64,000 nucleotides of DNA, from IMG/VR virus record IMGVR_UViG_3300045988_181101, one strand, 5' to 3'. The translations under genes and the position numbers were made by a program. This DNA comes from a virus. This document shows positions 21,963 to 46,624 of the stretch, in pieces (position 1 is the stretch's first letter; the number at the start of each line of letters is the position of its first letter). The notes beneath the pieces were generated by a model. The model was given only the letters and a program-made list of their open reading frames with translations, did not search any database and was not told the DNA's origin.

Positions 21963-22484
21963 TTAAAAATTCATTCTACGTCCATATTCAGCCATAAGTA
22001 AACTGTCAGAAAAGTTATCATCTTCATTCTTACATTTATTTGTTCTTCTAAGATCTACAGTAGGAAAAATTCTATGAGAAGCTAAGAAGCTCATTTTCTT
22101 TGTATCAATAACTTGAGTTTTACCTGTTGTAGAAGGTTTTGTTATCACATTAATTCCTCTAAACATTTCTTTTTGCCAAATCTTGGGATTTACTTTTGTA
22201 TAAGGTAACCCGATTGTAGCAATAACACCTTCGATTAATCCTGCTATAAATCCAAAGTTAAATGTTCCTTTTGCTGAACTACCGAAAATTGCGTGTATAT
22301 TCTCAATTATAACATGACAATTATCTTCATACTTAGAAAGGTTTAATAATGTATTACTTATTTCGACTGCATCTACATTTTTCGCATTTTTCAATAAAAA
22401 AAATGATTCTATGAATTTTCCAGTTTCATCTACAATCGAGATACAACCTTTAACACCGGGGTCTATACCTATATAATATTTCAT
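21963..22484 (-). CDS. RuvC-like Holliday junction resolvase
   Basis: YIGIDPGVKGCISIV (first acidic residue), VIIENIH (Glu), SDSLLMAEYG (C-terminal Asp); sits in the recombination module. Confidence 0.7.
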   Translation of the reverse strand: MKYYIGIDPGVKGCISIVDETGKFIESFFLLKNAKNVDAVEISNTLLNLSKYEDNCHVIIENIHAIFGSSAKGTFNFGFIAGLIEGVIATIGLPYTKVNPKIWQKEMFRGINVITKPSTTGKTQVIDTKKMSFLASHRIFPTVDLRRTNKCKNEDDNFSDSLLMAEYGRRMNF

Positions 22485-25400
22485 ACTTCTAATCTACTTA
22501 CTCCATTTTCTTTAATAACGCGAATTTGACTAATTTCTTCATTCAGTTTTGGTACATGAGTAACTATAAGAATAGGTTGCTTGAAGAAACTTATAGAAGT
22601 TGTAATATTCTCAATACCAAGTGAATCTACACTTTCCAATATTTCATCTATAAGTAAGAATTGCATTCCACCATATTTCTTAGTAGTGTTGATCATTGAT
22701 TGAAGAGCAAGTATAAGTGCTATTTCACAACGTGCTTTTTCACCTTCAGAGTAAAATGTAAATAATTCCATTTCATCTCTAAAAATGTAAGGTGTAATTT
22801 CTTCTTTAAGTTTACCGTTTGCACCTTTCTTAAAACCTTCAATCATTAATCTTAAATCACTACCCATTTTCTTTAAAATATCATTAGCAGAAAATTGAAT
22901 ATTCTTCAACTGTTCCATTGCAAGATACATTTTAAAATCCTTGAAACGTTGAGTCCATTGATTTATATTGAAAATATCATTTGTTTTATCTTCTATTTTT
23001 GAAGCAATTTTAGAAATAGATTTGTTTATACTTTCTATTCGTTTTTCAATATTAGATGTATCTTTTTCTTTTAATGGTTCTTTTAAAATTTCTTGAATAA
23101 GTTTTTCTTTATGTTCTATTGTCTCATAAGCTAACTCAACTTCAACTTTACCTGATTTTAAATTCTTATTCAATTTTAAAATCTGTGTATCAATAGTATC
23201 AATTGATTGAATTACGGTATTTAATTTATTTTTAATTGATCGTTGTGATTGTAATATAGAGTTTTCTTCATTTTCAGTCTCCTTTCTTAGAGAGTTATAT
23301 TCTTTTATAACTTCATCTAAATCTATTACAATTTGATTACATTCATCCTTTTCTTCTTTTTCTTTTTCAATAGAATTATTACACTTATCCTTTTCTTCTT
23401 TTAATTCGTCAATATTTTTATCACATTTAAGAAGGAATTCGTGATGACATTTAGGACAAACAATCACACCTGACAAGATATTATCTATAGAATTAAGAGT
23501 TGATTTCAATTCCCTTATTCTATCATTATGTTTATCAATTTCCTTTTCTGTAGACCTTTTATCTTCTTTATATTGATTTAAATCTTTATCAATTTCACTA
23601 TATACTTCTTGAAATCTATTTAAATCAATAGACGATAATTCTTTTTCAACCTTTTCTTTTATTTTTTCAAGATCCTCTTTCTCTTTAAATTTATCCTCGA
23701 GATCCTTTTGATAAGAACCTAATAAAATTTGCAAATCTTGAGTCTTATGATCAATTTTCTGAATTTCTTGTCGAATCTCTTCAATTCGCTCATTTCTTTC
23801 AGCTTCTTGATCTTTAGAATTTTCTTGTTCTAATTGTTCTTCATATACAGAAAGTTTGCCTGTCAATAAAGATTTTTCATCTTCTAATGAACGTTTTTCT
23901 TCAGTTATTTCATCAATTTTTTCTATAATAACATCCTTCGTTTTATCAATCTTTGAAAAATTGATAAAACGACTTATAAGAGCCAATTTTTCAGTATTAG
24001 ATGCTTTAAAGAAAGAATTATAATTATCTTTTGTTACAATATAATAAGATTTAGCATCTTCTGCAGAAATTTCAATCCAATTAGATACATATCTATTTCC
24101 ATCAAGAACTGTAGCACAATTTACTGGTGTAACCTTTTCATTTTCATCAATCAAAGATAATCTTAATGTAGACGAACCTTTTATACGTATTTCTCTTTCT
24201 ATAGATAGAGTTTGTTTACGTATAGGGCAATATATTTGAACACAAGTATAAGCTACATCAAATCCATATCGAATCAACTTTTTATCTACATTTCCACGTA
24301 AATTAACACCGTAAATACCATAAAATAAACCTTGACCAAAAAATGAATTATGTGTAACAATAAAATTGTTGGTTAAATATAATCCATCTTTATTAGAAAC
24401 GGTAATACATTGCATTTCTTCTTTTCCAACATATTGAATATCAACAATTCTCCGATCAACACAGTTCATTTTCTTCTCTTGCATCAATCTTTCAGATTTT
24501 CTTTTCAGATGAAAAAGATCAAGTCCTTTAGGAGGAACAATTCTTAACCGATAACTATCCTTACATTGAATTTTCTCTCCTTTTTTATTCTTATAAGAAG
24601 ATTTTAAATGAGAAACTTTATGACATAGACAACCGAGACTTCTTGCTATAAAAGCAACGTCTTCAATTAATTGTTTAGAAGTTAAAGTTAATTCTACCTT
24701 TCCTCTTTTATCAACATATCCGTCTGTATCTAAAAGGCCTCTAAGAAGTTCAAGTCTGACTTCTTTATTATTGTACATGTATTCCTTCGGAATAAATTTT
24801 TCAGAAGAATAAAGTCCAAATAAATTATATTTTTCTAAGATCTTCCAAAAAGCATCTTCTTGATTTTGAACTTTATTAATACGATAATCAAGTTTATTTG
24901 ATGATTGAACTAATTCAAATTTTTTATAAAAATTCAATCTATTTACAATCTCTTCGTCAGGTGAAGTAAAACCAATAATTTTTTGTGTAAATCCTCCATC
25001 ACCTAACAAAGCTCCTAAGGTGTAGGGGTCAATATCGACTTTTTGATAAGGATAATCTATACAATCGACTGTTGGCACTCTATATCTATAAGGATTACTA
25101 TTTCCACAATTACATTGTATAGATTGTTTCATTATATCTTTAAGCGATTTTATAACCCATTTCTTAGGAGTATAACATGAAGCAACTTTCCATAGATGCT
25201 CGTTATTACATTTGACTTTTGTTCCATCATTGAATGTAATTTCGTAACAATCAATGATTCCTTGAGGATGAATCGCTACTACTACTTGTTCTTTTCCATC
25301 AGAACCTAAAATTTTAGTTCCAATTCTAACATCTCTCATTTTTATAGATCCGGATAATGTCATAATATCAGAATCTAAACTCTGCGCTTTACCTCCACCA

Positions 25401-25522
25401 TTTGAAAGTTGATCATCCTGAGTTCTATTCTCTCCTATTACAGCAATAGGTTTGTGTACAAAATCATAATCAAGAGATTCAAATGGACCAAAATTCTTTA
25501 ATACTAATCTTCTTGGATACAT
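22481..25522 (-). CDS. Rad50/SbcC/T4 gp46-like recombination ATPase, interrupted by an intein
   Basis: N-extein ...GENRTQDDQLSNGGGK joins C-extein SFFGQGLFYGIYG to rebuild Walker A NGGGKS. Long coiled coil with central CPKC zinc-hook-like motif. C-terminus has the signature/Walker B region LLIDEILESVD. Confidence 0.85.
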   Translation of the reverse strand: MYPRRLVLKNFGPFESLDYDFVHKPIAVIGENRTQDDQLSNGGGKAQSLDSDIMTLSGSIKMRDVRIGTKILGSDGKEQVVVAIHPQGIIDCYEITFNDGTKVKCNNEHLWKVASCYTPKKWVIKSLKDIMKQSIQCNCGNSNPYRYRVPTVDCIDYPYQKVDIDPYTLGALLGDGGFTQKIIGFTSPDEEIVNRLNFYKKFELVQSSNKLDYRINKVQNQEDAFWKILEKYNLFGLYSSEKFIPKEYMYNNKEVRLELLRGLLDTDGYVDKRGKVELTLTSKQLIEDVAFIARSLGCLCHKVSHLKSSYKNKKGEKIQCKDSYRLRIVPPKGLDLFHLKRKSERLMQEKKMNCVDRRIVDIQYVGKEEMQCITVSNKDGLYLTNNFIVTHNSFFGQGLFYGIYGVNLRGNVDKKLIRYGFDVAYTCVQIYCPIRKQTLSIEREIRIKGSSTLRLSLIDENEKVTPVNCATVLDGNRYVSNWIEISAEDAKSYYIVTKDNYNSFFKASNTEKLALISRFINFSKIDKTKDVIIEKIDEITEEKRSLEDEKSLLTGKLSVYEEQLEQENSKDQEAERNERIEEIRQEIQKIDHKTQDLQILLGSYQKDLEDKFKEKEDLEKIKEKVEKELSSIDLNRFQEVYSEIDKDLNQYKEDKRSTEKEIDKHNDRIRELKSTLNSIDNILSGVIVCPKCHHEFLLKCDKNIDELKEEKDKCNNSIEKEKEEKDECNQIVIDLDEVIKEYNSLRKETENEENSILQSQRSIKNKLNTVIQSIDTIDTQILKLNKNLKSGKVEVELAYETIEHKEKLIQEILKEPLKEKDTSNIEKRIESINKSISKIASKIEDKTNDIFNINQWTQRFKDFKMYLAMEQLKNIQFSANDILKKMGSDLRLMIEGFKKGANGKLKEEITPYIFRDEMELFTFYSEGEKARCEIALILALQSMINTTKKYGGMQFLLIDEILESVDSLGIENITTSISFFKQPILIVTHVPKLNEEISQIRVIKENGVSRLEV
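24347..25387 (-). mobile_element. intein (347 aa) with LAGLIDADG homing-endonuclease domain; class 3-like (Ala1, Trp-Cys-Thr triplet)
   Basis: Starts AQSLDSDIMTLSGSIKM and ends FIVTHN followed by S. Block B is NNEHLW, block F MQCITV, block G VTHN. LAGLIDADG motifs are LGALLGDGGF and LLRGLLDTDGYV. Confidence 0.8.
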
Positions 25523-26484
25523 AACATCTTTTCTTTAACAGATTCGTTAATTTCATCAAACAATTCTTTATCTTGTAATAAAGCTTCTCTAACATTATCC
25601 ATTCCTTGTCCTAATCGATAATCATCGCCATAATAGAACCAAGCTCCTTTTTTCTGACACAAACCAAGTTTTACAGCAAGTTCTACTGTTTCTTGAACTA
25701 TATCGAATCCGACTCCAAATCTCAACATTACTTCACACGTTCTTAATGGAGGAGCTATCTTATTTTTAACTATCTTAATTTTAGTCTTATTAGCTACTGC
25801 TATATCTCCACTTTTATCTGTGCTGATTCGAGCAAACTCGACTCTTTGTGTAGAATAAAATTTAAGAGCTTCACCACCAGGAGTTGTTGTTGTAGGTCCA
25901 AAACCAAAACCTCCATTAATTTTTTGTCTCACTTGATTAATACATAATAGAATGTTTCTATTCTTATTACATATGTTCTTGAAAATTCCTAATTGTGCAG
26001 ACATTAATCGAGCAATCAATCCAATCTTAGCATCACCAACATCACCTTCAATTACACATTGAGGAACAAGACCTGCTACTGAATCAAGAACAACAATACC
26101 TATCTCAGGTTCTTCTAATCCTAAACGAACAGCTTCAAGTGCACTTTCTGCAGTATCAGGTTGAGAAAGTAGAAATTTATTTTGATCTAAATCAAGTCCT
26201 ATTTTCTTAGCATATTCAAGATCTAAAGATTGTTCTGTATCAACATAAAATACAGCTTTACCTCTTTTTTGCACTTCCTTACATAAATGTAATGCAGCAG
26301 TTGACTTTCCTGATGATGGTGGTCCATATATCTCATGTATACGAGCATTTGCAAAACCTCCTCCAAGAACTTCGTCAAAAGCTAAAGATCCTGACGAAAT
26401 TGTTTCCACTTCTATTTTCTTCGTCACAACAATACCTTGTCCTAATCTTTTTTCAATAGTTGATAAAAATTTATCTAATGCCAT
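25504..26484 (-). CDS. recA: RecA recombinase
   Basis: FDEVLGGGFANARIHEIYGPPSSGKSTAALHL (Walker A), IVVLDSVAGLVP (Walker B), bacterial RecA-like length; overlaps the downstream gene by 19 nt. Confidence 0.95.
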   Translation of the reverse strand: MALDKFLSTIEKRLGQGIVVTKKIEVETISSGSLAFDEVLGGGFANARIHEIYGPPSSGKSTAALHLCKEVQKRGKAVFYVDTEQSLDLEYAKKIGLDLDQNKFLLSQPDTAESALEAVRLGLEEPEIGIVVLDSVAGLVPQCVIEGDVGDAKIGLIARLMSAQLGIFKNICNKNRNILLCINQVRQKINGGFGFGPTTTTPGGEALKFYSTQRVEFARISTDKSGDIAVANKTKIKIVKNKIAPPLRTCEVMLRFGVGFDIVQETVELAVKLGLCQKKGAWFYYGDDYRLGQGMDNVREALLQDKELFDEINESVKEKMLCIQED

Positions 26485-26486
26485 AA

Positions 26487-27533
26487 TTATAATACTTGTT
26501 CTAAAATAGTTAATCCTTTTTCATAAGAATAATCATTCTGTTCACAAAAAATCTTAAACTTATTGATAATATCAGAATTAGTAAGAGTTTTAATTTCAGA
26601 TACTTCTGCTTCTTCTGAAATCTCTTCAATTTCTTTAGCTTTCATCTTTACATCAATACCAAGTTCTGTATAAACTTTCTTATCAATAGATTTGAGCTCA
26701 TCCTGATTACCTTTAAATTCTACTCTCAAAAGATTATCAGGATTTTCATCTTTAAACATTTTAACAATCTTATTAACTTGTTTGAGAGTCGTTACACTTA
26801 AATCAATAACAATCTTTCTAAATTTCTTTCCTTTCGAAGGAATCAGATCATAAGTCAAATCATCGTAAATGATCCAAAATCCTTTATTTTCGTCTTCACC
26901 AAAATTATTTTGAGTCAATGATCCAAGATGAACGAATTTTTCTCCAACTTCTTGATAATCGTGAAAATGACCTTGAAAAGTCATATCAAAATCATCAAAT
27001 GTCTTTAGACTTAATCTATTTTCTGTTACATGACCAAGATTCTTACTTCCTGTTATAGCAATATGTCCTAAACAAACAAGTTTATCTTTACTATCCTTTT
27101 CATCTTGAATACACTCAATAAGTTCATCAAATCTTTCTACCCAAATATCTTCATCATAATAAGCAATACATCCAAATAAAATATCTCCTATTCTAACAAT
27201 ATCTATATCATCAATGAGTTTAAAATTAGGATGATGTTTAAATGGTTTAAGAAAAGAATCTGAACTTTTATAATCTGATGAATCGTGATTTCCTCTAATA
27301 CAAATCAATTCTATACCAGCTTTATCGTAATGATCTAAAATCTTATCCCAAGAAGATAGAACAACTTGTTTTTGACTTATTCTTGAATCAAAAACATCAC
27401 CAAGACAAAAACATTGTTTTAAATTGTTAGTTTTACAGATATCAATACCTTGTTTTATCAATAATTCTTCAATTTCTTGATAATTAGATTCTTTTAAATG
27501 AATATCTGTAAAAATCATTGTGAGTGGTTTCAT
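26487..27533 (-). CDS. Mre11/SbcD/T4 gp47-like nuclease
   Basis: Calcineurin-like phosphoesterase motifs: FTDIHL, GDVFD, GNHD, GHIA, GHFH. Confidence 0.9.
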   Translation of the reverse strand: MKPLTMIFTDIHLKESNYQEIEELLIKQGIDICKTNNLKQCFCLGDVFDSRISQKQVVLSSWDKILDHYDKAGIELICIRGNHDSSDYKSSDSFLKPFKHHPNFKLIDDIDIVRIGDILFGCIAYYDEDIWVERFDELIECIQDEKDSKDKLVCLGHIAITGSKNLGHVTENRLSLKTFDDFDMTFQGHFHDYQEVGEKFVHLGSLTQNNFGEDENKGFWIIYDDLTYDLIPSKGKKFRKIVIDLSVTTLKQVNKIVKMFKDENPDNLLRVEFKGNQDELKSIDKKVYTELGIDVKMKAKEIEEISEEAEVSEIKTLTNSDIINKFKIFCEQNDYSYEKGLTILEQVL

Positions 27534-30641: not shown

Positions 30642-32654
30642 TTATGTTAAAACAGTAAATAACGAATTTATTGTCGTCTGTAAAATGTATTCTTGTCTAA
30701 ACTTATCCCATTGAATATAACCATTAAGAAGTAAAATGTTCCCCTTACTATTTCTTAATGATTCTGCAACTTCTTCAAATAATTCAGGAAATACATAGAC
30801 GTTTATAAAATCATAATTACTTTCTAATGTTATAGTAGCAAAAAGACCTTTCTTAGATTTTTTCTCTACTAAATCTACAACATATCCACCTATAGAAGCT
30901 AAGCGATATTTTGTAGTGCCTGTCCAGTATTTAACTTGACTAATATCGTAGAAATCATGTTCGTCATCATAAAGTTGAGGAATATGATAATTTCTTACAA
31001 GATATTCATAATCAAAAAATGCAAGTCCTGATACCTTCTTTTGTTGTAAAGTCCACCACCAATCATTTTTCTCTTTACGAGCTTTAATAATATTAGTCAA
31101 AAGATCTTTATCTTCAAGAATCTTCACTTTCTTATTTTCTCGATAGGATTCAATCAATTTCAATCTTTCATGAGGACGTTCTATATTCTCCAATTTATCA
31201 AACGCACCACTATAGATGAGATTTTCAATAACAGATTTGTTTACAGGAGATCCTTTTATTACACATCTATCTATAAATTCATCAAGTGAAAAGAATTCTC
31301 CATTCTCATGTCTTTCCTTTGAAATAAATTCTTGAGCTTTTTCACCACATTGTTTAACTGAATTCAAAGCCCAATACATACTTCCTGTTTTGACATCTGA
31401 AACAATATTTATATCAGACTTATTTATATCTACAGTGCGAAGTTCAATGTTACCTGATTTCTGAATTTCATTAACATAAAAAGGATAATCTTTACTTTCA
31501 GCATAGGAGAATGTTACAGACCAAAACTCAATAGGATAATGCACTTTCAACCAAAGGCAATTATATCCATTTCGCGAATAAGCGATTGCATGGGATTTGT
31601 TAAACGCATAGGCACCAAATTTCACCATTTGATCCCAAAGTTCTTTTGCATAAGATTCTTCTACACCAAATTTATTGATATAACCTTTTACAAACTTTTC
31701 TTCATACGATTGAAGTTTTTGTAAATTTTTTTTACCAATAGCTTTTCGGACACCATCAGTGGTCTCTAAGTCAAAATCAGCAAGATACTGACAGAGACGC
31801 ATTATATCTTCTTGGTACACTATAAAGTTTTTTGACTTTGATAAAACTTTTTCTGCACCTATTGGAGCTTCTTTATCAATTTCTCCTTTCTTAGCAAGAA
31901 TGTATTCATTGTGAAAATTATTCTCAATAGGTCCAGGACGATATAAAGCTGCACATATCCCCATCTCATCAAGACTTTCAGGCTGCATCTGAACGCAATA
32001 AGACGAAAGTCCTTTTGCACCGAAGTGGAAAATATTCGATAAAAATCCTTTCTTTATATATTCAAAGACTATTCTATCATCTAAAGGAATATCTTTATAT
32101 AAATCAAGTTTTATACCGTGATTTTTATAAATCAAATCAAGTATATCAGATAATTGTGATAATTGTCTGATACCTAATATATCTTCTTTCAAAAATCCAG
32201 CATCTTCAATTTCTGAACCTTCCCATTGTGTAACCATTAAACCTTGTTGTTTCTTGATAGGAGTCCATTGAGCAGAGGTTTTCTCATCAGGTAATACTAC
32301 TGTACCACAAGCATGAATAGAAGATGTCTTCGGTGTATTAAGAATAATCATCATATCATCAAAGAGTTCTGTGTTATCTTTGACAAATTCTCTCATTTCT
32401 TTATCCTTACAAATAATTCTAAAGAAATCCTCTGCACTTTCCATCCCTTCTTCATCTCTTAATCTTGATGTAAATCGTCTTACTGCTCCAATAGGTAAGT
32501 TGTGACAGCGAGCAAGGTCTGTAATGGCAGCTTTAAGTTTTAATGTACCATAAGTTCCAAGAGAAACGACTTGTGTTTCGCCAAATCGACTCTCCATGTA
32601 TTTCTTTACTTTTTCTCGTCCTTCAGACGAAAAATCCGAATCGATTTCACTTAG
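30642..32654 (-). CDS. dnaE: DNA polymerase III alpha subunit, C-terminal part (palm catalytic Asp pair onward); 5' boundary approximate
   Basis: The frame is open upstream of the track ATG back to a TAG at 32664-32666 and encodes (SPG)LSEIDSDFSSEGREKVKKYMESRFGETQVVSLGTYGTLK. This is the PDxDxDF...GT segment of DnaE. Later motifs include ALYRPGP, FNKSHA and an OB-fold-like C-terminus. Confidence 0.85.
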   Translation of the reverse strand, partial: LSEIDSDFSSEGREKVKKYMESRFGETQVVSLGTYGTLKLKAAITDLARCHNLPIGAVRRFTSRLRDEEGMESAEDFFRIICKDKEMREFVKDNTELFDDMMIILNTPKTSSIHACGTVVLPDEKTSAQWTPIKKQQGLMVTQWEGSEIEDAGFLKEDILGIRQLSQLSDILDLIYKNHGIKLDLYKDIPLDDRIVFEYIKKGFLSNIFHFGAKGLSSYCVQMQPESLDEMGICAALYRPGPIENNFHNEYILAKKGEIDKEAPIGAEKVLSKSKNFIVYQEDIMRLCQYLADFDLETTDGVRKAIGKKNLQKLQSYEEKFVKGYINKFGVEESYAKELWDQMVKFGAYAFNKSHAIAYSRNGYNCLWLKVHYPIEFWSVTFSYAESKDYPFYVNEIQKSGNIELRTVDINKSDINIVSDVKTGSMYWALNSVKQCGEKAQEFISKERHENGEFFSLDEFIDRCVIKGSPVNKSVIENLIYSGAFDKLENIERPHERLKLIESYRENKKVKILEDKDLLTNIIKARKEKNDWWWTLQQKKVSGLAFFDYEYLVRNYHIPQLYDDEHDFYDISQVKYWTGTTKYRLASIGGYVVDLVEKKSKKGLFATITLESNYDFINVYVFPELFEEVAESLRNSKGNILLLNGYIQWDKFRQEYILQTTINSLFTVLT

Positions 32655-33649
32655 TCCGGGAGACTACCTAATGACGTAGTCTCCCGGATCTCCTTTCTTA
32701 AATCTTTAATTGTTATCATTATTTATTTCTTGTTTTAAAAATTCAACCAATTCTTCAACGTTGTCAGGAACCTTATTTGATTTTTTAATATTATCAACTT
32801 TCCATAACGGCTGTAGATTCCTGTAATTAAGACAGATACGTTGATTTTCTTCTTTAGTCAGATCAAAGTAAGATATAGGAATAATATGATCAATCTGCCA
32901 ACCGTCTTTTCCACCATAATTCTCCCACGTCATTCCAGGTTCGAATTGTTGTTCGAGATGAACTTTCAGTTCACCAAGAGAACAACCAATTAAATCAAAT
33001 GTACTGTTTTTCTTCGATCCATTTAATCTCGTTCTCAATCCGTTTCTCAAAAGGTGAGCTAATTTAAAATTCAAATCTTCCTTTCTCCTTCTTCGACTAT
33101 TAATCGATCTTTTTAATCGACCTTGATCTGATTTTAAATATAAATTCGATTGTAAAATTCTCTTCTCTTTATTCTTTTCGTAATAATCTTTATCATATAA
33201 AGACCGTCTTTCTTTATTTTCTCTTCCCCTCTCTAATATCACTTCTTTGTGATTTTGATAATAAAGTTTATCGCTTTTCTTTCGATTTTCAGATTTTAAA
33301 TACAATTTAGTATATTCTTTCTTGCAATCTTTACACTGAGCTTCTAATCCATCTGAACAGCTCTTACATTTGTTAAAATGATCAAGTGAAAGTTCTCGTC
33401 TACAATGACTGCAAATCTTCAATCCTGTCTCAAAATTAGCTTTCATACTTTATATAAAATTTTTCATTTTTCTTTATATGTTTATTCGTTATAATCCATC
33501 AATTCATCATCTTCTTGTAATTCACCAGCCTTAACAATCATCTTTTCTTTATTACGTAAAATTCGCACAAAATCAGTAGATTTGATACAAATAGGTGAGG
33601 AACTATTTTCGTTTATAACTACCTCTTCAACTTTATCGTGACGTATCAA
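32655..33649 (-). mobile_element. HNH-carrying insertion of about 1 kb splitting dnaE: candidate group I intron (boundaries approximate)
   Basis: DnaE homology stops at ...LFERFLTTGR (R codon at 33650-33652) and resumes at LSEIDSDF (32654 downward). The interval holds HNH ORF 32706..33446 and a 13-bp GC-rich hairpin at 32655-32688. Confidence 0.5.
32706..33446 (-). CDS. HNH homing endonuclease with N-terminal Zn ribbon (paralogue 2), inside dnaE
   Basis: CSHCRRELSLDHFNKCKSCSDGLEAQCKDCKK; WENYGGKDGWQIDHIIP...NYRNLQPLWKVDNIKKSN. Confidence 0.85.
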   Translation of the reverse strand: MKANFETGLKICSHCRRELSLDHFNKCKSCSDGLEAQCKDCKKEYTKLYLKSENRKKSDKLYYQNHKEVILERGRENKERRSLYDKDYYEKNKEKRILQSNLYLKSDQGRLKRSINSRRRRKEDLNFKLAHLLRNGLRTRLNGSKKNSTFDLIGCSLGELKVHLEQQFEPGMTWENYGGKDGWQIDHIIPISYFDLTKEENQRICLNYRNLQPLWKVDNIKKSNKVPDNVEELVEFLKQEINNDNN

Positions 33650-37626: not shown

Positions 37627-38271
37627 TTATTTATGATTAATTTTCCAAATTTGGATTTGTCTTAAAAACTCATCTCGACTATTCATAGAATTATCTAAAA
37701 ATAATCCTGAACAATAATTTGTTACCATAGAAGAGTTATCTTCTGCGCCTCTCATACTTACACACATATGTTCAGCTTCAATATAAACAGCAATTCCTCT
37801 AACAGAATCACCGAACACTTCTTTAAGATAATCATGAATCTGTTTTGTCAACTGTTCCTGAAGTTGAGGTCTTTTTGCAAACCAATGAACAATTCTATTT
37901 AATTTAGAAAGTCCTACGACATCTCCGCCTTCTTGTGGAATGTAAGAAATGTGGCAAACTCCGCAAAAAGGTAAAAAATGATGGCTACACAATGAATTAA
38001 CTTCAATACCCATTTCTGTTACCATCCCTGTATAACCAGTTCCTGGGAACGTTGCAATTCTTGGTCTTTCTTCATAAACTCCTGAAGTAATTTCATTTAC
38101 CATCATCTTTGCAACACGATAAGGAGTTTTTACCATATTAGGATCATTCTTCCAATCATATCCTAATGCTTCAAGAAACTTACCGTAGGCTTCTTCTGCA
38201 TTTTTCATCATTTCCTCTTTTCTTTCTTTAGAAAGAACAATGTTTTGACCTGCTTTTAATTTAAAATCCAT
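37627..38271 (-). CDS. folE: GTP cyclohydrolase I
   Basis: SLCSHHFLPFCGVCHISYIP and VVGLSKLNRIVHWFAKRPQLQEQLT, the FolE type I signatures. Confidence 0.95.
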   Translation of the reverse strand: MDFKLKAGQNIVLSKERKEEMMKNAEEAYGKFLEALGYDWKNDPNMVKTPYRVAKMMVNEITSGVYEERPRIATFPGTGYTGMVTEMGIEVNSLCSHHFLPFCGVCHISYIPQEGGDVVGLSKLNRIVHWFAKRPQLQEQLTKQIHDYLKEVFGDSVRGIAVYIEAEHMCVSMRGAEDNSSMVTNYCSGLFLDNSMNSRDEFLRQIQIWKINHK

Positions 38272-38295
38272 ATTATTTATTCCTTTCTTTTTATA

Positions 38296-39594
38296 TCAAA
38301 CTCCTCTTTTTGTTCCCCAAATTATAATTTGCAATCTATCTGAATAGTGATATCCATGTTCAGCACAATATTCTGCTACCATTTGTCTTTTTTTCAATAA
38401 TTGTTCTTCATTGATACCTTCAGGCATTAAACAAACAGAACCTTTTTTAGGCTTCAGCTCTTTCAAAAGATTTTCAATTTCTTCAAAATCTTCTCTTTTT
38501 GATACAACAAACTTTAACTGATAATTTTGAGCATATTTCATCCATTTTTTAAAATTATCAATTCTAATTCTATTCTTTTCATGAATATTTTCATACTTAG
38601 TTCCTATTGGAGTAGAATCTCTTAATTTAGGTGAAATTGATACTAAATCTATCATTTTCATTAAAGATTCGTCTAAACAAACAGTTCCATTTGTTTCTAA
38701 AGTTATAAGTTTCTTATTATTTTTAGCAATAATTATAAGTTCTTCAATTCTATTGGAAATGCAAGGTTCGCCTCCAGATAAAACGATGTGTCTTATTAAT
38801 GGGTTTTCTTTGATAAGATTTTTAACGTCTAAATTGGAATAAGAACCTTTTTCCGGTTTCCAAGATGTAAATGATGTATCACACCATCTACATTTTAAAT
38901 TACATCCTATCGTTCTAATAAATAAAGAAGGTATTCCTGCATATCTACCTTCACCTTGAATTGATTTAAATATTTCTGAAAGATATTTTTCCTCAAATAT
39001 TTCTTTCTTTAAAAATTCGACTAATTCTTCAACATTATTCGGAACTTTTGCTCCTTTAGAATCATTTTCTTTTGCCCATAACGGTTGTAAATTCCTGTAA
39101 TTGAAACAGATACGTTGATTCTCCTCTTTTGTTAAATCAAAATAAGAACAAGGAATAATATGATCGACATGCCATTTTCCATAATTATCCCAACTCATTC
39201 CTTCTTTAAATTGAGATTCAAGATGTCGTTTTAAATGTTCGATTGAACAACCAAGAAGATCGAGTGTATGTGTCGATTTTCGATTGTTTTTACATTTTAA
39301 AGCATTATAACAACGAGACCTTAGAATTTGAGTTAAATTCAAATTTAAATTATTTTTAACCTTTTCTCGTCTTTTTCTATCGTCTTCTTTGGCATATCCT
39401 AAAACTCGTCTTCTTATTGTCTGCTTTCTTTGAATTCTTTTACCACTTTCAGAACGATTAAATTCACTTTTACATTTTTTACAATAATTTTCTAATCCAT
39501 CGTTTGAAGATTTATTTTTTCGGAAACAATCTAATGATAATTTCTTTTTACAACGACTACAAATCTTCATTCCTTTTTCAAAATCAGCTTTCAT
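38296..39594 (-). CDS. queE: in-frame fusion: HNH endonuclease (paralogue 4, aa 1 to ~200) plus 7-carboxy-7-deazaguanine synthase QueE (aa ~203-432)
   Basis: HNH part: CSRCKKKLSLDCFRKNKSSNDGLENYCKKCK...HVDHIIP...NYRNLQPLWAKEN...VPNNVEELVEFLKKEI. It continues without stop or ATG into YLSEIFKSIQGEGRYAGIPSLFIRTIGCNLKCRWCDT (QueE radical-SAM cluster motif) and LSGGEP. Confidence 0.85.
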   Translation of the reverse strand: MKADFEKGMKICSRCKKKLSLDCFRKNKSSNDGLENYCKKCKSEFNRSESGKRIQRKQTIRRRVLGYAKEDDRKRREKVKNNLNLNLTQILRSRCYNALKCKNNRKSTHTLDLLGCSIEHLKRHLESQFKEGMSWDNYGKWHVDHIIPCSYFDLTKEENQRICFNYRNLQPLWAKENDSKGAKVPNNVEELVEFLKKEIFEEKYLSEIFKSIQGEGRYAGIPSLFIRTIGCNLKCRWCDTSFTSWKPEKGSYSNLDVKNLIKENPLIRHIVLSGGEPCISNRIEELIIIAKNNKKLITLETNGTVCLDESLMKMIDLVSISPKLRDSTPIGTKYENIHEKNRIRIDNFKKWMKYAQNYQLKFVVSKREDFEEIENLLKELKPKKGSVCLMPEGINEEQLLKKRQMVAEYCAEHGYHYSDRLQIIIWGTKRGV

Positions 39595-39599
39595 TATTA

Positions 39600-40193
39600 T
39601 TATTTAATTTGTTTTTCTACTTTAGGATTAATAAAATATTTTCCATCAGATTCTTTAGTATGACGAAAGAAACTATGTAATTCTTCTGACCAATCATTTA
39701 ATACACCAACAGAATAAGCTGTAGATAAATCTACAGGAAGTAAATCAAAATCATTTATTGTTGCTTCAGCATAACCTGTTGCAGTTTCATGATAAATTAC
39801 CTTATTACATTTTACATTCCCTTCGCCATTATTAAATTCTGTTGCTTTAATCATTGCATTAATCATATAACAAATATACAATGCAAGATTTTCAGCAGAA
39901 GGACTTATAGGAAGTTCAATCCAACGATCGCACCATTTTTTCATATCGTTCTTATATTCTTCCTTGTCTTTATTCCAAATCAGCATACAATGATCAAAAG
40001 AATCGATCCATTGTCCTATATTTTTCTTAATCAAAGAGAAATCTACAATCATTCCTCCATTATCAAGTTTATCTGAAGTTAAAAATACTTCAATGACTGC
40101 TGAATGACCATGAATACTTTTTCGACAACGATTTGTTGAACAATTGCGTACAATATGCGCTCCTTCAACTTTAAATAATTTTCTAATCTGCAT
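39600..40193 (-). CDS. queD: 6-carboxy-5,6,7,8-tetrahydropterin synthase
   Basis: FKVEGAHIV...CRKSIHGHSAVIEV (Cys...His-Gly-His QueD motif). Confidence 0.8.
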   Translation of the reverse strand: MQIRKLFKVEGAHIVRNCSTNRCRKSIHGHSAVIEVFLTSDKLDNGGMIVDFSLIKKNIGQWIDSFDHCMLIWNKDKEEYKNDMKKWCDRWIELPISPSAENLALYICYMINAMIKATEFNNGEGNVKCNKVIYHETATGYAEATINDFDLLPVDLSTAYSVGVLNDWSEELHSFFRHTKESDGKYFINPKVEKQIK

Positions 40194-41779: not shown

Positions 41780-43225
41780 TTATATCGTATTGACTTTTCG
41801 CTCACCTCTTTTTAATTTTTCAACTTTGTCTTTAGATTTTTTATGATTGAAATTTCGTTCATCTTCATTACTGAATAATTGTATGGTTCTTGATTTGTCA
41901 TAAAATCTACCTTTATCATAATTTGTTGCTATTGGAAAAGTTAATTGAGATTCTTTAAAATCACGTAATTTATCTATATAAATACGCATAGTACAGTTAT
42001 TCTTTTCTTCTCTTGTTGTATTGCCTGTAAAAACGAATGAAAACGGCTTTACTAATGTTCTATCTCCTTCTGTATAACTTCTATCAATTACTTTTTCAGG
42101 ATTATCCCAAATTTCAATAGGTACATTACCTGTTTGTGTTGCTGTTATCCCAACCATTTTAAATTCTACACAAAGATTTTTGAATAACTGAGCACAAGAT
42201 TGAAGTTTATCCTTCTTAAAATTAGGATTATTATCTATTGTACTATTAATACCAGTCTTTACAAGATCAAGTGAATCTAAAATTAAAACTCGAGGATAAA
42301 AACCATAAATTTTATGATAATCAAGAACAATATTCCTAACTTCTACCATTGAAGCTTCACCGAATTTTTCAAAACCATAAACCGTTATATCTTCACCATA
42401 ATTTTTCATGGCTTTATATGCATTCATAATTTGTTTTTGGTCTTCAGGTTTCAAAAAACCACTTCTAATATCATTAAATTCTTGTCCTGTCCAATATTGA
42501 TCATACTTATCAAGACAAGCTTTTACACCACCTTCTAATTGTATATGTAGTACAGGATGTCCATCATAAGCTGCTGCCATTCCATGATGTCTTAATACCG
42601 TAGACTTACCTTGACCACTTTTCATGATCCATAACACAGTATCTTCTATCAAAGCTCCACCATAAGAAATTGCGTCTAACCTATCGATACCTAATGTTAT
42701 ATGATCAGGAACTTTGTTTTCTTCTGAATCACACCTTCTATTTTTCATTCGAGTTTCGAATCCATTGAAAACTCTTGAAAAATTTCCTCCATCATGTCTT
42801 AGAGAAATAGAAAGTATTCGTTGACTTTCTTCAAGATTTACTTTAATTGCTTCATCTTTTTTATTTTCTTCATATAAATCATGAACTTTCTTAGACAATA
42901 ATTGAAATTCAACATCTTTAATGTATGATTCTAATTGATCTATTATAATCTCTCTATCAACTTTATTTGCGTTTTGAATTTCAGCAATTGTTTCTTGAAC
43001 TGAATCATTTTCTATATATTTTTGAGAAACTACTCCAAGCGAAGGTACAACTTCATTCTTTGTAAAGATTTCGATAGCCTCTCTTAATAAATACTTATAA
43101 CCTGGCCATTCTTTAGGTATTAATTGATAAGTCAAATTACATACAGCTATTCTTGTTAACGAAATATCTGAATAAATCAACTTAAATAATTCTGCCATAA
43201 AATTGGCACTTAATTTCTGAGCCAT
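41780..43225 (-). CDS. DnaB/gp41-like replicative DNA helicase
   Basis: RecA-fold Walker A IMKSGQGKSTVL, Walker B VLILDSLDLV, ATQTGN; adjacent to the primase. Confidence 0.75.
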   Translation of the reverse strand: MAQKLSANFMAELFKLIYSDISLTRIAVCNLTYQLIPKEWPGYKYLLREAIEIFTKNEVVPSLGVVSQKYIENDSVQETIAEIQNANKVDREIIIDQLESYIKDVEFQLLSKKVHDLYEENKKDEAIKVNLEESQRILSISLRHDGGNFSRVFNGFETRMKNRRCDSEENKVPDHITLGIDRLDAISYGGALIEDTVLWIMKSGQGKSTVLRHHGMAAAYDGHPVLHIQLEGGVKACLDKYDQYWTGQEFNDIRSGFLKPEDQKQIMNAYKAMKNYGEDITVYGFEKFGEASMVEVRNIVLDYHKIYGFYPRVLILDSLDLVKTGINSTIDNNPNFKKDKLQSCAQLFKNLCVEFKMVGITATQTGNVPIEIWDNPEKVIDRSYTEGDRTLVKPFSFVFTGNTTREEKNNCTMRIYIDKLRDFKESQLTFPIATNYDKGRFYDKSRTIQLFSNEDERNFNHKKSKDKVEKLKRGERKVNTI

Positions 43226-43226
43226 A

Positions 43227-45965
43227 TTAAATCAAATTTATTCCTACTTGAACTTCTTTCTCACACTCTCTCAACGAGTTAATCGAAATAAAGGTACTCA
43301 TACAAACATCATCGTGTCCCGAAGCAGCTTCAAGTTTACCATTATCACTTTTAAACGTTATAGATGAGAATTCACCAAACATTAAGTCAACTGCTTGTCT
43401 CGTTTCTCCTACAGCATAAGGACATTTTAATTGACCTCTTTCAAACATTGCTGAAAGACTTGGTAATCCTGTATAAAGATCCTTCTTATTTCCTTCAGTC
43501 GTAGTAAAAGTTTCAATATTTTTCAATCCTCTTTCTCTTGCTAACGCAGATAATATGGACTGAAATCCGTTTGATTCACATACAATTTTATTAGGTCTAA
43601 ATAATCTATCAAGTTGAACAATCTTATCTATCTGCTCATTATGAGACATTCCTTTTTGTCTGTAATAAGTAAGTAGATAATAATTCTTCATTGAATCAAT
43701 ACCCCAAACTGAATATACAGTATAGTCTGCACCAATATTACCTGAAACAGCAAAGTCTACACCTATATGAACTCTTTGTAATTTTATAGGATAATCATCT
43801 ATAGATGTAGCGAATCTTATATTTTCCATTCCTACAGTTGATCTCATCAAATATTCATAAGGAAATATTGTAGATGAATCACTAATAGGTACTACAAGAT
43901 ACTCACGATTAAACACGATTGTTCCAAGTTCTTCTCTCTTTGCAAGAATCTGATCAAACGTATATCTATCAGGAGCAAGTGGTCTACCATCAGGAAATAT
44001 AACTGGATATTCAAAACAGTAAAATCGCTTATCAGCTTTCAATACTTGATATAATTCATTTGGTGCAGAAGAATATGGTGTTCCACAAACAATAAAATAT
44101 CCATAAGGCTCTACGATAGGCTCAATTGTTCCTTTTAGAAGTTCTTTAAGTTTTTCTCTTTGTTCGTCTGAATATAAAGAAGATTCATCAGGCATATCAT
44201 CACATAATACAGCTCCTACGTGTAGACCGCGAATGAAACCATCGCGACCACGAATATGTAATGTGCTTCCTGTTTCAGTTGTTATACCTGTTTCTCCAAT
44301 AGATGCTTTACCATTTGGATTAAGTTTCTCAGCTATCAAATCATTTGTTTCAATTTCCTCTCTTACTTTTTTAATCTGAACTTTCGCAAGTGTCATCGTA
44401 GATGTGATATAACACGTTTCTTTTCTGTTTTGATTATCTACAGTATTTTGTCTCCAGGGAACAGGTCGACAATAACTCCATAATCTCCAAAGAATAAATG
44501 CATAAGACCACATATAACTATTATGAACAACAGTTCCATCACTGAGTAGAAATTTATGATCACCATCTAAAGCAAATCCATAATAGTCTCCTTCTCCTGC
44601 TTGAGTAATAGTTAAAGCTGATTTATTACCTTGTTGAACTTTATCATATTGTTGAGCTTGCTTTCTCTTTACTTTAGTAGGTATTGTCCAAATTTTACCG
44701 GATATATAAATTCTGTAGAATTTATAATTTTTATAACTATATTCACCAATTTGTATATTTTTTCTCACATGTGTTTCTATAGAAGTACATTGAAATCCAA
44801 GTGACAAAGCAAGATAACGAATTTGTTCTATAAGCTCATATTTCTTTAAAGATAATTCAAACGAACATGAATTTCTCGAAGTTCCTTTTCGTTTTAAATA
44901 TTTTTGTTCATTTAAATGACCGTCCGAATCCAAGATACCTGCTAATAATTGAAGTCTCTGTTGACGAGAACCTTTCATATAAACATCAGGAATATGCTTG
45001 TTTTGAATTAAATTCAAATCTCTCAATTTAGATGATAAATCTACTCCGGAAATTCCGTTTAACATTTCTTTTTCTTTATAAGAATATTTTCCTCCTATCC
45101 TTTTACTATATTCTTTAATTGCATTTCTTACTTCTATATCCGGATTTGTTATGTAATAATTGCAATTCGTACCATCACCAAGCCAAAGTCCAAGCCAATA
45201 TGGATCAATAGAAAGTTCTTTTTCAGGAAGTTCCCATCCATCAATCTTTCTGTATCCAAAAATTTTCTTCCGACCATAACCTGCATGTTTAGGGATGTCT
45301 TCAACAGGAATGTCTTTATAAATTCTTTTTGTTACTCTTTTATTATCTATTGTTGTTGGTCGATCCCAAATACAACAAACCAAATGACCTTCATTCACAT
45401 AATAATCTTTAGCATAAGTTTGATGAACTTTATACATCTGCGACCGACCTCTATGAAGTTGAAGAACTGTTCTTGGAGTATTATCTATTCCCATCACTTG
45501 ATCTCCAACTTTAATATCTTGAACAGGCTTTAAAGAACCATCATACATAACTACTAACTCGTTGATACTGAGACATTTACCTGAACCGCGACCACAAAGA
45601 TAACAGCTCCACGGAAACAGTTGTGTCATATTACCCCATTCAACATTTCTCCAACCCATCCTAAAATTAGGGAGCATTGTCAAAATGAAGTAATTCAATG
45701 AATAAATCTTCAAAGTTGTATCCATTGAAGCTTTTACATTCTCTATATAATCAAGACTTTCAGAATCAAGTGTTCTACCAAGATACAGTGTTTTTTCAGT
45801 TTGAGTAAGTATTTCCTTTAACATTTTATCAACATCATTATTATAACCTTCAAGAAGTTGATTTAATGCTTTAGGAGATAGATCCTCAATTATTTTATCT
45901 ACAGTATCATATAGATAATTCATTTGATTTACTGAAAGTAAATCTTTACCATCTAATGTTAACAT
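43227..45965 (-). CDS. terL: terminase large subunit, interrupted by an intein
   Basis: The exteins join as CYLCGRGSGK + SYMWSYAFILW (Walker A GRGSGKS). Walker B is AVLCDDMPDE. The C-terminal RNase H-like nuclease has IGVDFAVSG, VCESNGFQ and GHDDVCMS. Confidence 0.85.
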   Translation of the reverse strand: MLTLDGKDLLSVNQMNYLYDTVDKIIEDLSPKALNQLLEGYNNDVDKMLKEILTQTEKTLYLGRTLDSESLDYIENVKASMDTTLKIYSLNYFILTMLPNFRMGWRNVEWGNMTQLFPWSCYLCGRGSGKCLSINELVVMYDGSLKPVQDIKVGDQVMGIDNTPRTVLQLHRGRSQMYKVHQTYAKDYYVNEGHLVCCIWDRPTTIDNKRVTKRIYKDIPVEDIPKHAGYGRKKIFGYRKIDGWELPEKELSIDPYWLGLWLGDGTNCNYYITNPDIEVRNAIKEYSKRIGGKYSYKEKEMLNGISGVDLSSKLRDLNLIQNKHIPDVYMKGSRQQRLQLLAGILDSDGHLNEQKYLKRKGTSRNSCSFELSLKKYELIEQIRYLALSLGFQCTSIETHVRKNIQIGEYSYKNYKFYRIYISGKIWTIPTKVKRKQAQQYDKVQQGNKSALTITQAGEGDYYGFALDGDHKFLLSDGTVVHNSYMWSYAFILWRLWSYCRPVPWRQNTVDNQNRKETCYITSTMTLAKVQIKKVREEIETNDLIAEKLNPNGKASIGETGITTETGSTLHIRGRDGFIRGLHVGAVLCDDMPDESSLYSDEQREKLKELLKGTIEPIVEPYGYFIVCGTPYSSAPNELYQVLKADKRFYCFEYPVIFPDGRPLAPDRYTFDQILAKREELGTIVFNREYLVVPISDSSTIFPYEYLMRSTVGMENIRFATSIDDYPIKLQRVHIGVDFAVSGNIGADYTVYSVWGIDSMKNYYLLTYYRQKGMSHNEQIDKIVQLDRLFRPNKIVCESNGFQSILSALARERGLKNIETFTTTEGNKKDLYTGLPSLSAMFERGQLKCPYAVGETRQAVDLMFGEFSSITFKSDNGKLEAASGHDDVCMSTFISINSLRECEKEVQVGINLI
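44520..45575 (-). mobile_element. intein (352 aa, class 1: Cys1...His-Asn / +1 Ser) with LAGLIDADG domain
   Basis: CLSINELVVMYDGSLKPVQDIKVGD...LLSDGTVVHN followed by S; LAGLIDADG motifs WLGLWLGDGT and LAGILDSDGH; Cys1 codon at 45573-45575, Asn codon at 44520-44522. Confidence 0.9.
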
Positions 45966-46624
45966 AATTGAAACGAATCTCTATATCTTTTTTGTTCGAC
46001 TTTTTGAATAATCTGTCCTTCTCCTCTTAACTTTTTAATACACGAAATTAGATATTGAGCGTTTGCTTTTGTATCATTCAAAGCTCTATGTGCATCAACA
46101 AGATCAATTCCTGCTAATTGACAACAAGTACCAAGTTGATAATTTTCTTGCTCTAAAGAACTTATATGAGCCCAATGCATTGTATCTATATAATATTTTA
46201 CATACTTATCTATATCATCATTCATGTATGTAAAGAAATTTCTCAAAAAAGGATTGTCAAATCCATTTGTACTTTGTCCTCCTATATTATGTCCTGCTAA
46301 TGTACATAATTGTCTTGGATTCTTATACTTAGTGAACCAAGTTTTAAGTTCTTTATATATATCTTTTAATGGAGTTGCAAGTTCTTCTTGCATCTGCTCT
46401 GTAATTCCATGTACTGCAGTGGCTTGTTCTGAATAGATGAGATCCTCCTTATAATTATAAGGGAAAATTCTATCAAGTTCATCTACTATTTCCAATGTCT
46501 TCATATCAATACAAACCATTGCTATTTCAACACAAGGAGCATTTTCAAAGGCAATACATTTACTATTACATAAATTGCCAGTCTCGAAATCGTAAACTAA
46601 AATGTAATTACAAGATGTTTTCAT
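45959..46624 (-). CDS. DnaQ-like DEDDh 3'-5' exonuclease
   Basis: Exo I ILVYDFETGN, Exo II LAGHNIGGQSTNGFDNPFL, Exo III HRALNDTKA. Confidence 0.85.
   Translation of the reverse strand: MKTSCNYILVYDFETGNLCNSKCIAFENAPCVEIAMVCIDMKTLEIVDELDRIFPYNYKEDLIYSEQATAVHGITEQMQEELATPLKDIYKELKTWFTKYKNPRQLCTLAGHNIGGQSTNGFDNPFLRNFFTYMNDDIDKYVKYYIDTMHWAHISSLEQENYQLGTCCQLAGIDLVDAHRALNDTKANAQYLISCIKKLRGEGQIIQKVEQKRYRDSFQLC

Follow-up and report, generated by a model that had tools for sequence, protein, structure and literature searches.

Class 3 inteins, a rarer type, are defined by a non-nucleophilic residue 1, a co-varying Trp at block B position 12 (B12), Cys at block F position 4 (F4) and Thr at block G position 5 (G5), and a Ser or Thr at the +1 position (PMC2807308; restated in PMC5050341). 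Their biochemical criteria are an obligate block F Cys and a first, thiol-labile branched intermediate (PMC2807308), together with N-terminal cleavage in the absence of the +1 nucleophile (PMC2807308, PMC5222942). The mechanism that we propose below was worked out with the DnaB intein of mycobacteriophage Bethlehem, which has Trp67, Cys320, Thr339 and a Thr at +1 (PMC2807308). The DnaB-1 intein of Mycobacterium smegmatis (Msm) splices by the class 3 route (PMC5222942), and use of the block F Cys has been shown experimentally for class 3 DnaB1 inteins (PMC5222942, PMC7664689). The point between the Lys and the following Ser or Thr of a P-loop is a 'classic' intein site (PMC5050341). In a 2025 survey of actinobacteriophages, class 3 inteins were confined to four extein types, which do not include SbcC or Rad50, and inteins of this class have already been proposed to jump between unrelated genes by way of near-identical P-loop codons (bioRxiv 10.1101/2025.01.02.630785). 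Here we describe an insert of 347 amino acids (aa) in a gene on a 64,000-nucleotide stretch of IMG/VR virus record IMGVR_UViG_3300045988_181101 (the whole stretch is referred to below as the window). We consider it highly probable that this insert is an intein of class 3, mobile and equipped with an in-frame LAGLIDADG nuclease, lying between the Walker A Lys and Ser of an SbcC/Rad50-like ATPase of an uncultured phage of ~105 kb.

An initial sequence-only reading of the window had placed the insert at 24347-25387, as residues 46-392 of the precursor, and had named its putative catalytic residues; open reading frame (ORF) and codon mapping reproduces these positions exactly. The features of the precursor gene, with the basis for each assignment, are listed here.

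22481..25522, minus strand: precursor gene, a 1013-aa SbcC/Rad50-like ATPase split by the intein (ORF list)
25388..25522, minus strand: N-extein, residues 1-45, ending in NGGGK, the first part of Walker A (25388..25402); residue-by-residue alignment with intein-free orthologues up to the invariant Lys45
24347..25387, minus strand: intein, 347 aa, residues 46-392, with class 3 signature and LAGLIDADG homing endonuclease (1041-nucleotide indel, PDB matches, AlphaFold/Foldseek)
22481..24346, minus strand: C-extein, residues 393-1013, first residue Ser393 (motif search and extein alignment)
25073..25387, minus strand: N-terminal half of the splicing (Hint) domain (alignment to 6bs8, 6rix and 6riz; limit approximate, from model secondary structure)
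25385-25387, minus strand: codon of Ala46
25349..25387, minus strand: block A, AQSLDSDIMTLSG
25184..25219, minus strand: block B, KVKCNNEHLWKV, with His109 at B10 and Trp111 at B12
25190-25192, minus strand: codon of Trp111
24473..25072, minus strand: LAGLIDADG homing endonuclease domain (Pfam LAGLIDADG_3 and Hom_end; limits approximate)
24989..25024, minus strand: LAGLIDADG motif 1, YTLGALLGDGGF, residues 167-178, with Asp175
24713..24754, minus strand: LAGLIDADG motif 2, LELLRGLLDTDGYV, residues 257-270, with Asp267
24347..24472, minus strand: C-terminal half of the splicing domain (alignment with VRCVEV...PTHN of class 3 DnaB1 inteins)
24374..24421, minus strand: block F, EEMQCITVSNKDGLYL, with Cys372 at F4
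24407-24409, minus strand: codon of Cys372
Block G, NNFIVTHN, with Thr390 at G5, then His391 and Asn392, and Ser393 following at +1
24353-24355, minus strand: codon of Thr390
24347-24349, minus strand: codon of Asn392
24344-24346, minus strand: codon of Ser393

Removal of residues 46-392 from the precursor leaves a protein of 666 aa that reads ...LSNGGGK followed directly by SFFGQGLFYGIYG, and in which Ser393 is at once the +1 nucleophile and the Ser of Walker A. The junctions at Lys45/Ala46 and Asn392/Ser393 are fixed by intein-free orthologues and by an exact indel. When the 666-aa spliced sequence was searched against 5.8 billion proteins, 119 of the best 120 extein homologues listed were without the insert (586-668 aa, 54-91% identical). 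The N-termini of these homologues run unbroken as ...DDQLSNG[ST]GK[ST]..., with a contiguous G-x-G-K-[ST], and the spliced length is the orthologue length. L002, which encodes P0002 and is the nearest allele to be free of the intein, runs collinear with the window gene, with 89% identity upstream and 92% identity downstream of a single indel of exactly 1041 nucleotides (nt).

The insert thus separates Lys45 from Ser393 within Walker A, and the fused target site in DNA is CTTTCAAATGGTGGAGGTAAA joined to TCATTTTTTGGTCAAGGTTTA. L002 has GGTACTGGTAAG joined to ACGAGTGTA where the window has GGTGGAGGTAAA joined to TCATTTTTT. Comparison of L002 with window 25367..25408 plus 24326..24346 shows differences at 10 of 42 positions, concentrated in the 21 nt that span the insertion point and changing GGGKSFF to GTGKTSV, with the remaining gene ~90% identical. 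Co-conversion may have left this cluster of substitutions, or the cluster may make the target resistant to cleavage.

The identical precursor protein (P0001) is encoded on 23 contigs from independent metagenome samples, of which the six shown are 32-105 kb, and it represents a 90% cluster of 27 sequences. Relative to the window, the gene is identical on one of six contigs and carries three to five codon changes on each of the other five, all of them synonymous in both intein and extein. Among the full-length variants of the 90% cluster, nine of 11 have no amino-acid change in the intein, yet have one to nine changes in the extein. From the synonymous-only change on many contigs, the precursor gene appears to be in use. 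The insert is 29.3% G+C and the window 29.0%, and its composition therefore gives no mark of recent foreign origin; no ORF of at least 60 aa is present on the plus strand beneath it. We found no near-identical DNA among GenBank phages, and hence no annotated record of this phage there; the nearest GenBank phage records are from human faeces.

The proposal that the insert is an intein with a two-motif LAGLIDADG nuclease is borne out by Pfam, by PDB matches and by structure prediction. Both LAGLIDADG_3 (E 5e-10) and Hom_end (E 5e-8) match above their cut-offs, and Intein_splicing and Hom_end_hint score under theirs. The first 65 residues match solved mini-inteins with E about 1e-7. Both LAGLIDADG motifs are intact within one chain, each with its acidic residue, and in an alignment of 51 homologues Lys242 (intein Lys197) and Asp267 (intein Asp222) are invariant and Asp175 (intein Asp130) is at least 90% conserved. 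An AlphaFold2 model of the intein built on these 51 homologues has a mean pLDDT (predicted local distance difference test) of 93.8 and a pTM (predicted template modelling score) of 0.92. Its best full-length Foldseek matches are PI-SceI, TliVMA and PI-PfuI (E 3e-17 to 6e-11, template modelling scores of about 0.6-0.69), and among mini-inteins it comes closest to the M. chimaera and M. smegmatis DnaB1 inteins, both of class 3 (E 1e-5). The two Hint halves flank the nuclease domain in the arrangement seen in PI-SceI (E 3e-17). Sequence and model together support an intein with a LAGLIDADG homing endonuclease, for which both cleavage and excision are predicted. In P0129, one of the variants of this 90% cluster, seven residues are substituted; all seven lie in the nuclease domain, and D175N, at the acidic residue of motif 1, is one of them. 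The splicing residues of P0129 are unaltered, which suggests that the homing endonuclease is beginning to decay in this lineage.

The splicing domain has all of the class 3 sequence features, namely Ala at residue 1, His at B10, Trp at B12, Cys at F4, Thr at G5, a His-Asn end and Ser at +1; Tyr382 also occupies the block F aromatic position. In sequence, the best PDB matches are two class 3 inteins, DnaB1 of M. chimaera (Mch; 6rix/6riy) and DnaB1 of M. smegmatis (6bs8), together with 6riz (E 4e-7 to 2e-6), the last of these being the gp41-1 intein with a grafted Trp-Cys-Thr triplet and a C1A substitution (PMC7664689). Alignment with class 3 inteins, the check that the sequence-only reading had recommended, puts its block assignments for Trp111, Cys372 and Thr390 in register with the DnaB1 inteins. 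Ala46 aligns with residue 1 of 6bs8 and 6riz (AQSLD against ALALD). NNEHLW pairs with AAHQW, so that His109 and Trp111 correspond to His65 and Trp67 of DnaB1, MQCITV pairs with VRCVEV, so that Cys372 corresponds to Cys118/124, and IVTHN pairs with VPTHN, so that Thr390 is the Thr of the DnaB1 THN end. Moreover, His109, Trp111, Cys372, Thr390, His391 and Asn392 (His64, Trp66, Cys327, Thr345, His346 and Asn347 in intein numbering) are invariant in the 51 homologues, which are 27-41% identical to the query; at such divergence, invariance of Trp, Cys and Thr in the alignment is far beyond chance.

We surveyed this family more widely using 161 homologous inteins from 141 proteins. The Trp-Cys-Thr triplet is found in 158 of the 161, with the block F Cys and the block G Thr each present in 160, and the +1 residue is Ser or Thr in every one. 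Residue 1 is Ala in 133, another non-nucleophile in 17, Ser in seven and Cys in four. Gly-Lys immediately precedes 112 of these inteins, and the hosts include PhoH, UvrD-like and DnaB-like helicases, polynucleotide-kinase-like AAA_33 proteins and terminases. Class 3 inteins of exactly this architecture are very common in phage P-loop NTPases, and by its sequence the window intein is typical of a large family of class 3 inteins resident in the P-loops of phage and cellular NTPases.

These features suggest a pathway for splicing and homing. The gene encodes a single 1013-aa precursor with its ATP-binding loop split by 347 residues, and since a P-loop with these residues between its Lys and Ser cannot bind nucleotide, the ATPase needs splicing. 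Residue 1 of the intein is Ala, so the usual N-terminal acyl shift is impossible. Instead, Cys372, positioned with His109 and Trp111, would attack the Lys45-Ala46 peptide bond to form a thioester-branched intermediate, the N-extein would then be transferred to the hydroxyl of Ser393, and cyclisation of Asn392 would free the intein. An O-to-N shift would rebuild GGGK-S and yield an active 666-aa ATPase, the presumed partner of the neighbouring SbcD/Mre11-like nuclease. From the sequence and from close relatives that have been studied experimentally, we infer with good confidence that splicing proceeds through Cys372. The freed intein would act as a homing endonuclease, cutting intein-free alleles of related phages during co-infection, with repair copying the intein in; this would explain the presence/absence polymorphism among phages that are ~90% identical.

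In PHROGs, phrog_77 ('SbcC-like subunit of palindrome specific endonuclease') matches residues 5-665 of the spliced protein (E 3.8e-46), and public sources that name the gene call it "DNA repair exonuclease SbcCD ATPase subunit". The spliced protein has the layout of this family, with an N-terminal Walker A, a long coiled coil with a CxxC hook, and a C-terminal signature, Walker B and His switch; most motif residues are invariant among 15 homologues, although the residue after the signature Ser varies, the motif being mostly YSGGE. The intein-free orthologues, phrog_77 and these motifs agree with the earlier placement of the insert within Walker A of an SbcC/Rad50-like ATPase. The NGGGKS...FGLFG string that had been likened to that of T4 gp46 is indeed present in T4-like phages, in genes annotated as gene 46. 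BLAST gave no link between the extein and T4-like gp46, and for this reason we prefer the label SbcC/Rad50-like to that of gp46 orthologue. A RecA gene lies between the ATPase gene and an SbcD-like gene, the latter being one gene upstream of the ATPase gene on the same strand, and the RecA gene shares the 19 nt at its 3' end with the start of the precursor gene. Cultured relatives of the extein are found in phages of Bacteroidota (Cellulophaga, Tenacibaculum, Chryseobacterium and Bacteroides) and, distantly, of Staphylococcus. The extein motifs and the neighbouring genes are as follows.

23447..23458, minus strand: CPKC zinc hook of the coiled coil, residues 689-692
22730..22753, minus strand: signature-like motif, YSEGE
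22643..22660, minus strand: Walker B, FLLIDE
22550..22567, minus strand: His switch, IVTHVP
25504..26484, minus strand: RecA/UvsX-like recombinase gene (Pfam RecA, E 2.7e-73)
26487..27533, minus strand: SbcD/Mre11-like nuclease gene (Pfam Metallophos, E 3.5e-11; phrog_100 'SbcD-like subunit', E 2e-41)

Several observations weigh against the interpretation given above. With the extein, no SMC, Rad50 or SbcC model of Pfam or NCBIfam reaches its curated cut-off (23 bits for Pfam SMC_N, where 40 are needed, and scores far too low for the NCBIfam SMC/Rad50/SbcC models), and a profile search of solved structures with the extein returned no Rad50 or SbcC, only spurious coiled-coil matches. With the Pfam and NCBIfam matches sub-threshold, the identity of the extein depends on phrog_77, on its motifs and on its gene neighbours, by which we regard it as a divergent SbcC/Rad50-like ATPase. 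With regard to mechanism, splicing, the block F thioester and the endonuclease activity are all three things that we infer from sequence. In PMC7664689, grafting of Trp-Cys-Thr and Ala1 onto the class 1 gp41-1 intein gave no working class 3 intein, so the triplet is necessary, yet not sufficient, for class 3 splicing. Furthermore, residue 1 is Ser in seven and Cys in two of the homologues that have the triplet, which is therefore without strict co-variation with a non-nucleophilic residue 1, and mixed mechanisms within the family are possible. These homologues lend some weight to splicing without a block F thioester, either by direct attack of Ser393 on the Lys45-Ala46 bond (class 2) or by a class 1 route from a junction at Ser48. 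Class 2 (KlbA-type) inteins likewise start with Ala (PMC2807308); however, class 2 is defined by the lack of Trp-Cys-Thr, and its known examples have Cys at +1 (PMC2807308), whereas the window intein has the full triplet and a Ser at +1. The junction at Ser48, which the sequence-only reading had itself raised as the competing N-terminal boundary, would leave GGGK-AQ-SFF with two extra residues; the intein-free orthologues all go from GK straight into Ser or Thr, the spliced length is already that of the 666-aa orthologue, and together with the L002 indel this excludes Ser48 and leaves Ala at residue 1. In the Bethlehem DnaB intein, moreover, substitution of Ala or Ser for the block F Cys gave no recoverable splicing or cleavage (PMC2807308). 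We therefore think it quite unlikely that the window intein splices without the block F thioester.

A decayed, non-splicing intein, which would make the SbcC/Rad50-like gene effectively a pseudogene or leave a protein without ATPase activity, has a precedent in Arthrobacter Arth_1007, where a non-splicing intein resembling the Trp-Cys-Thr type has Asp in place of the block F Cys (PMC3196547). The D175N change and the six further nuclease-domain changes of P0129 likewise indicate a nuclease that is already decaying in one lineage or more. In the window, however, His109, Trp111, Cys372, Tyr382, Thr390, His391, Asn392 and Ser393, which make up the full set of residues that class 3 splicing is known to require, are all present, the six catalytic ones among them being invariant; the precursor is kept on 23 contigs of different samples with codon changes relative to the window that are only synonymous, and nine of the 11 full-length protein variants have an unchanged intein, all of which makes decay very unlikely. 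The Pfam result, in which only LAGLIDADG families pass their cut-offs and two intein splicing families fall below theirs, would fit a homing endonuclease or other domain that is permanently fused into the ATPase. We find this hardly credible, as the Hint halves flank the nuclease as in PI-SceI, the N-terminal 65 residues match solved mini-inteins, the insert has a His-Asn end followed by Ser, and a P-loop split between Lys and Ser could not bind ATP. A class 3 intein that splices through Cys372 is thus our preferred reading, and the corrected annotation of the gene is a 666-aa ATPase plus a 347-aa mobile element.

A further, unlikely idea is that the class 3 intein also acts as a post-translational switch, keeping the SbcCD-like nuclease of the phage inactive until reducing conditions in the anaerobic host allow the precursor to mature, with Cys372 as a single exposed catalytic thiol as in DnaB-1. 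Splicing of the mycobacterial DnaB-1 intein is reportedly blocked by oxidation in a reversible manner. Were such a switch to operate, DNA-end processing would be timed or gated during infection, and the repeated retention of class 3 inteins at the SbcC site, including a nuclease-less mini-intein of a distant relative that is unable to home, would reflect selection and not chance. Two mycobacterial DnaB inteins are described as differing in their response to environmental stressors (PMC6195587).

The distribution of the intein among relatives is sporadic, as expected of a homing element. It is absent from extein relatives at 91, 75, 64, 60 and 55% identity, and the related gut phage MT835601.1 (L009 2356..4854) and P0259 have a 141-aa class 3 mini-intein at the same SbcC/Rad50 GK/S site (a slash marks the insertion point here and below). 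We searched the whole precursor against 1.84 billion representative proteins and examined the best 150 of 20,241 matches; among these 150, only P0259 joins this intein with an SbcC/Rad50-like extein. Two groups of candidates were rejected. P0284, P0294, P0302, P0361, P0370, P0299 and P0310, long proteins in which the intein is close to the N-terminus, match Pfam SNF2, ClpB-type families or nothing, and no SMC/Rad50. P0268, P0270, P0276, P0278, P0282, P0300 and P0312 contain two such inteins each and have no SbcC/Rad50-like C-terminal region; from their flanking motifs we read these seven as putative PhoH-like proteins.

The best intein match among the matches listed is P0263, the DnaB-like helicase (L010 5477..7984) of a phage syntenic with the window, the shared genes of L010 and the window having 66-77% nucleotide identity. 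The P0263 intein is also class 3 and nuclease-bearing, and lies after ...RSGIGK and before STVLRHH; the DnaB-like helicase gene of the window (41783..43231) is intein-free. Identity between the P0263 and window inteins is 57% overall, with 25-53% over residues 1-200 and 72-85% over residues 201-347, and by blastn their last 470 nt are 77% identical, which is as high as for the flanking orthologous genes. The SbcC and helicase target sites share little outside the P-loop core, GGT-nnn-GGT-AAR/WCN. Because the nearest intein is in a helicase P-loop of a syntenic phage, these sequences are best read as one intein lineage that moved between two P-loop genes of one phage group, followed by recombination or by faster change of the N-terminal half.

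The terminase large subunit gene of the window (43230..45980, minus strand) contains a second intein (44520..45575), of 352 aa, which is class 1 and has a LAGLIDADG domain. It starts CLSINE... and ends ...VVHN/S, and is located between the Walker A Lys and Ser (CGRGSGK/SYMW), and one genome thus holds both classes at equivalent P-loop positions. The terminase of MT835760.1 (L001 1265..3364) has a class 1 mini-intein of 405 nt at the GK/S site used by the window terminase intein. We note also that the DNA polymerase III alpha-like gene is 1094 aa in L010 (15564..17984) and a 673-aa ORF in the window (30645..32663). By blastn, ~1.2 kb of this polymerase gene, between L010 16532 and 17753, is in L010 only, and may be another mobile insertion. 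At L010 10060..12157 (approximately window 37700..39800) there are genes matching PTPS (QueD-like) and GTP cyclohydrolase I, a hint of a 7-deazaguanine-type DNA modification pathway.

Both the element type and the insertion site are already well known, and our general understanding of inteins is unchanged by this example; what is provisionally new is the extein family, not previously reported with an intein. In the literature searched, coverage of which is incomplete, we came across no description of an intein in Rad50, SbcC or gp46, nor of any class 3 intein in this extein family, in keeping with the sequence-only reading, which had known of none and had also credited the first characterisation of the class to a mycobacteriophage DnaB intein, namely that of Bethlehem (PMC2807308). 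The main text of the main bacterial and archaeal intein survey leaves Rad50, SbcC and gp46 unmentioned (PMC4760082), and a study of crAss-like phages mentions inteins, none of them in an SbcC/Rad50-like gene. Provisionally, therefore, SbcC/Rad50-type ABC ATPases join the P-loop proteins invaded by class 3 inteins as a new host family. The range of the class is extended from the well-studied actinobacteriophages to abundant uncultured phages, for which the nearest GenBank records are from human faeces and the extein relatives in culture are phages of Bacteroidota. Together, the SbcC intein with its nuclease, the mini-intein at the same site in a relative and the close copy in a syntenic helicase P-loop form a compact natural series in which to study an intein's change of host gene. 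Class 3 inteins accepting a Lys at -1 and a Ser at +1 also have some value as splicing tools.

Comparison with described systems places the window intein closest in signature to the DnaB-1 inteins of M. smegmatis and M. chimaera (6bs8, 6rix, 6riy), with which it shares Ala1, the block B His-x-Trp, Cys at F4 and a T-H-N end, as well as the same Walker A Lys/Ser site (FGVGK/STLGL in DnaB-1 and NGGGK/SFFGQ in the window). The DnaB-1 elements differ in host, which is a bacterial replicative helicase, and in form, being nuclease-free mini-inteins of 139-145 aa; they are 26-31% identical to the window intein over aligned splicing-domain columns. The Bethlehem DnaB intein, like that of the window, is a phage-borne class 3 intein with an endonuclease domain (PMC2807308), although, compared by description only, it has Pro1, Gln at -1 where the window has Lys, and an actinobacteriophage helicase as its host. 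The mycobacteriophage TerL1-a 'classic' P-loop inteins are likewise situated between the invariant Lys and the next Ser or Thr of Walker A (PMC5050341), whereas the actinobacteriophage genes between which class 3 inteins are proposed to have jumped encode terminase, Cas4/RecB-like and helicase proteins. PI-SceI, TliVMA and PI-PfuI have the same overall two-domain fold, but belong to class 1, have Cys1 and lack the Trp-Cys-Thr triplet; they are 13-18% identical and reside in other exteins. Nearer relatives are the helicase inteins P0263 (L010) and that of MT835760 (L001 3380..5905), which have the same architecture, signature and GK/S or GK/T site and are 57% and 52% identical, respectively, to the window intein in amino-acid sequence, albeit in a different extein. 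The mini-intein of MT835601/P0259 has Ala1, SHLW, QQCITV and PTHN/S at the same GK/S junction, in an extein ~45% identical to that of the window; it is 50% identical to the window splicing domain and, unlike the window intein, has no nuclease domain.

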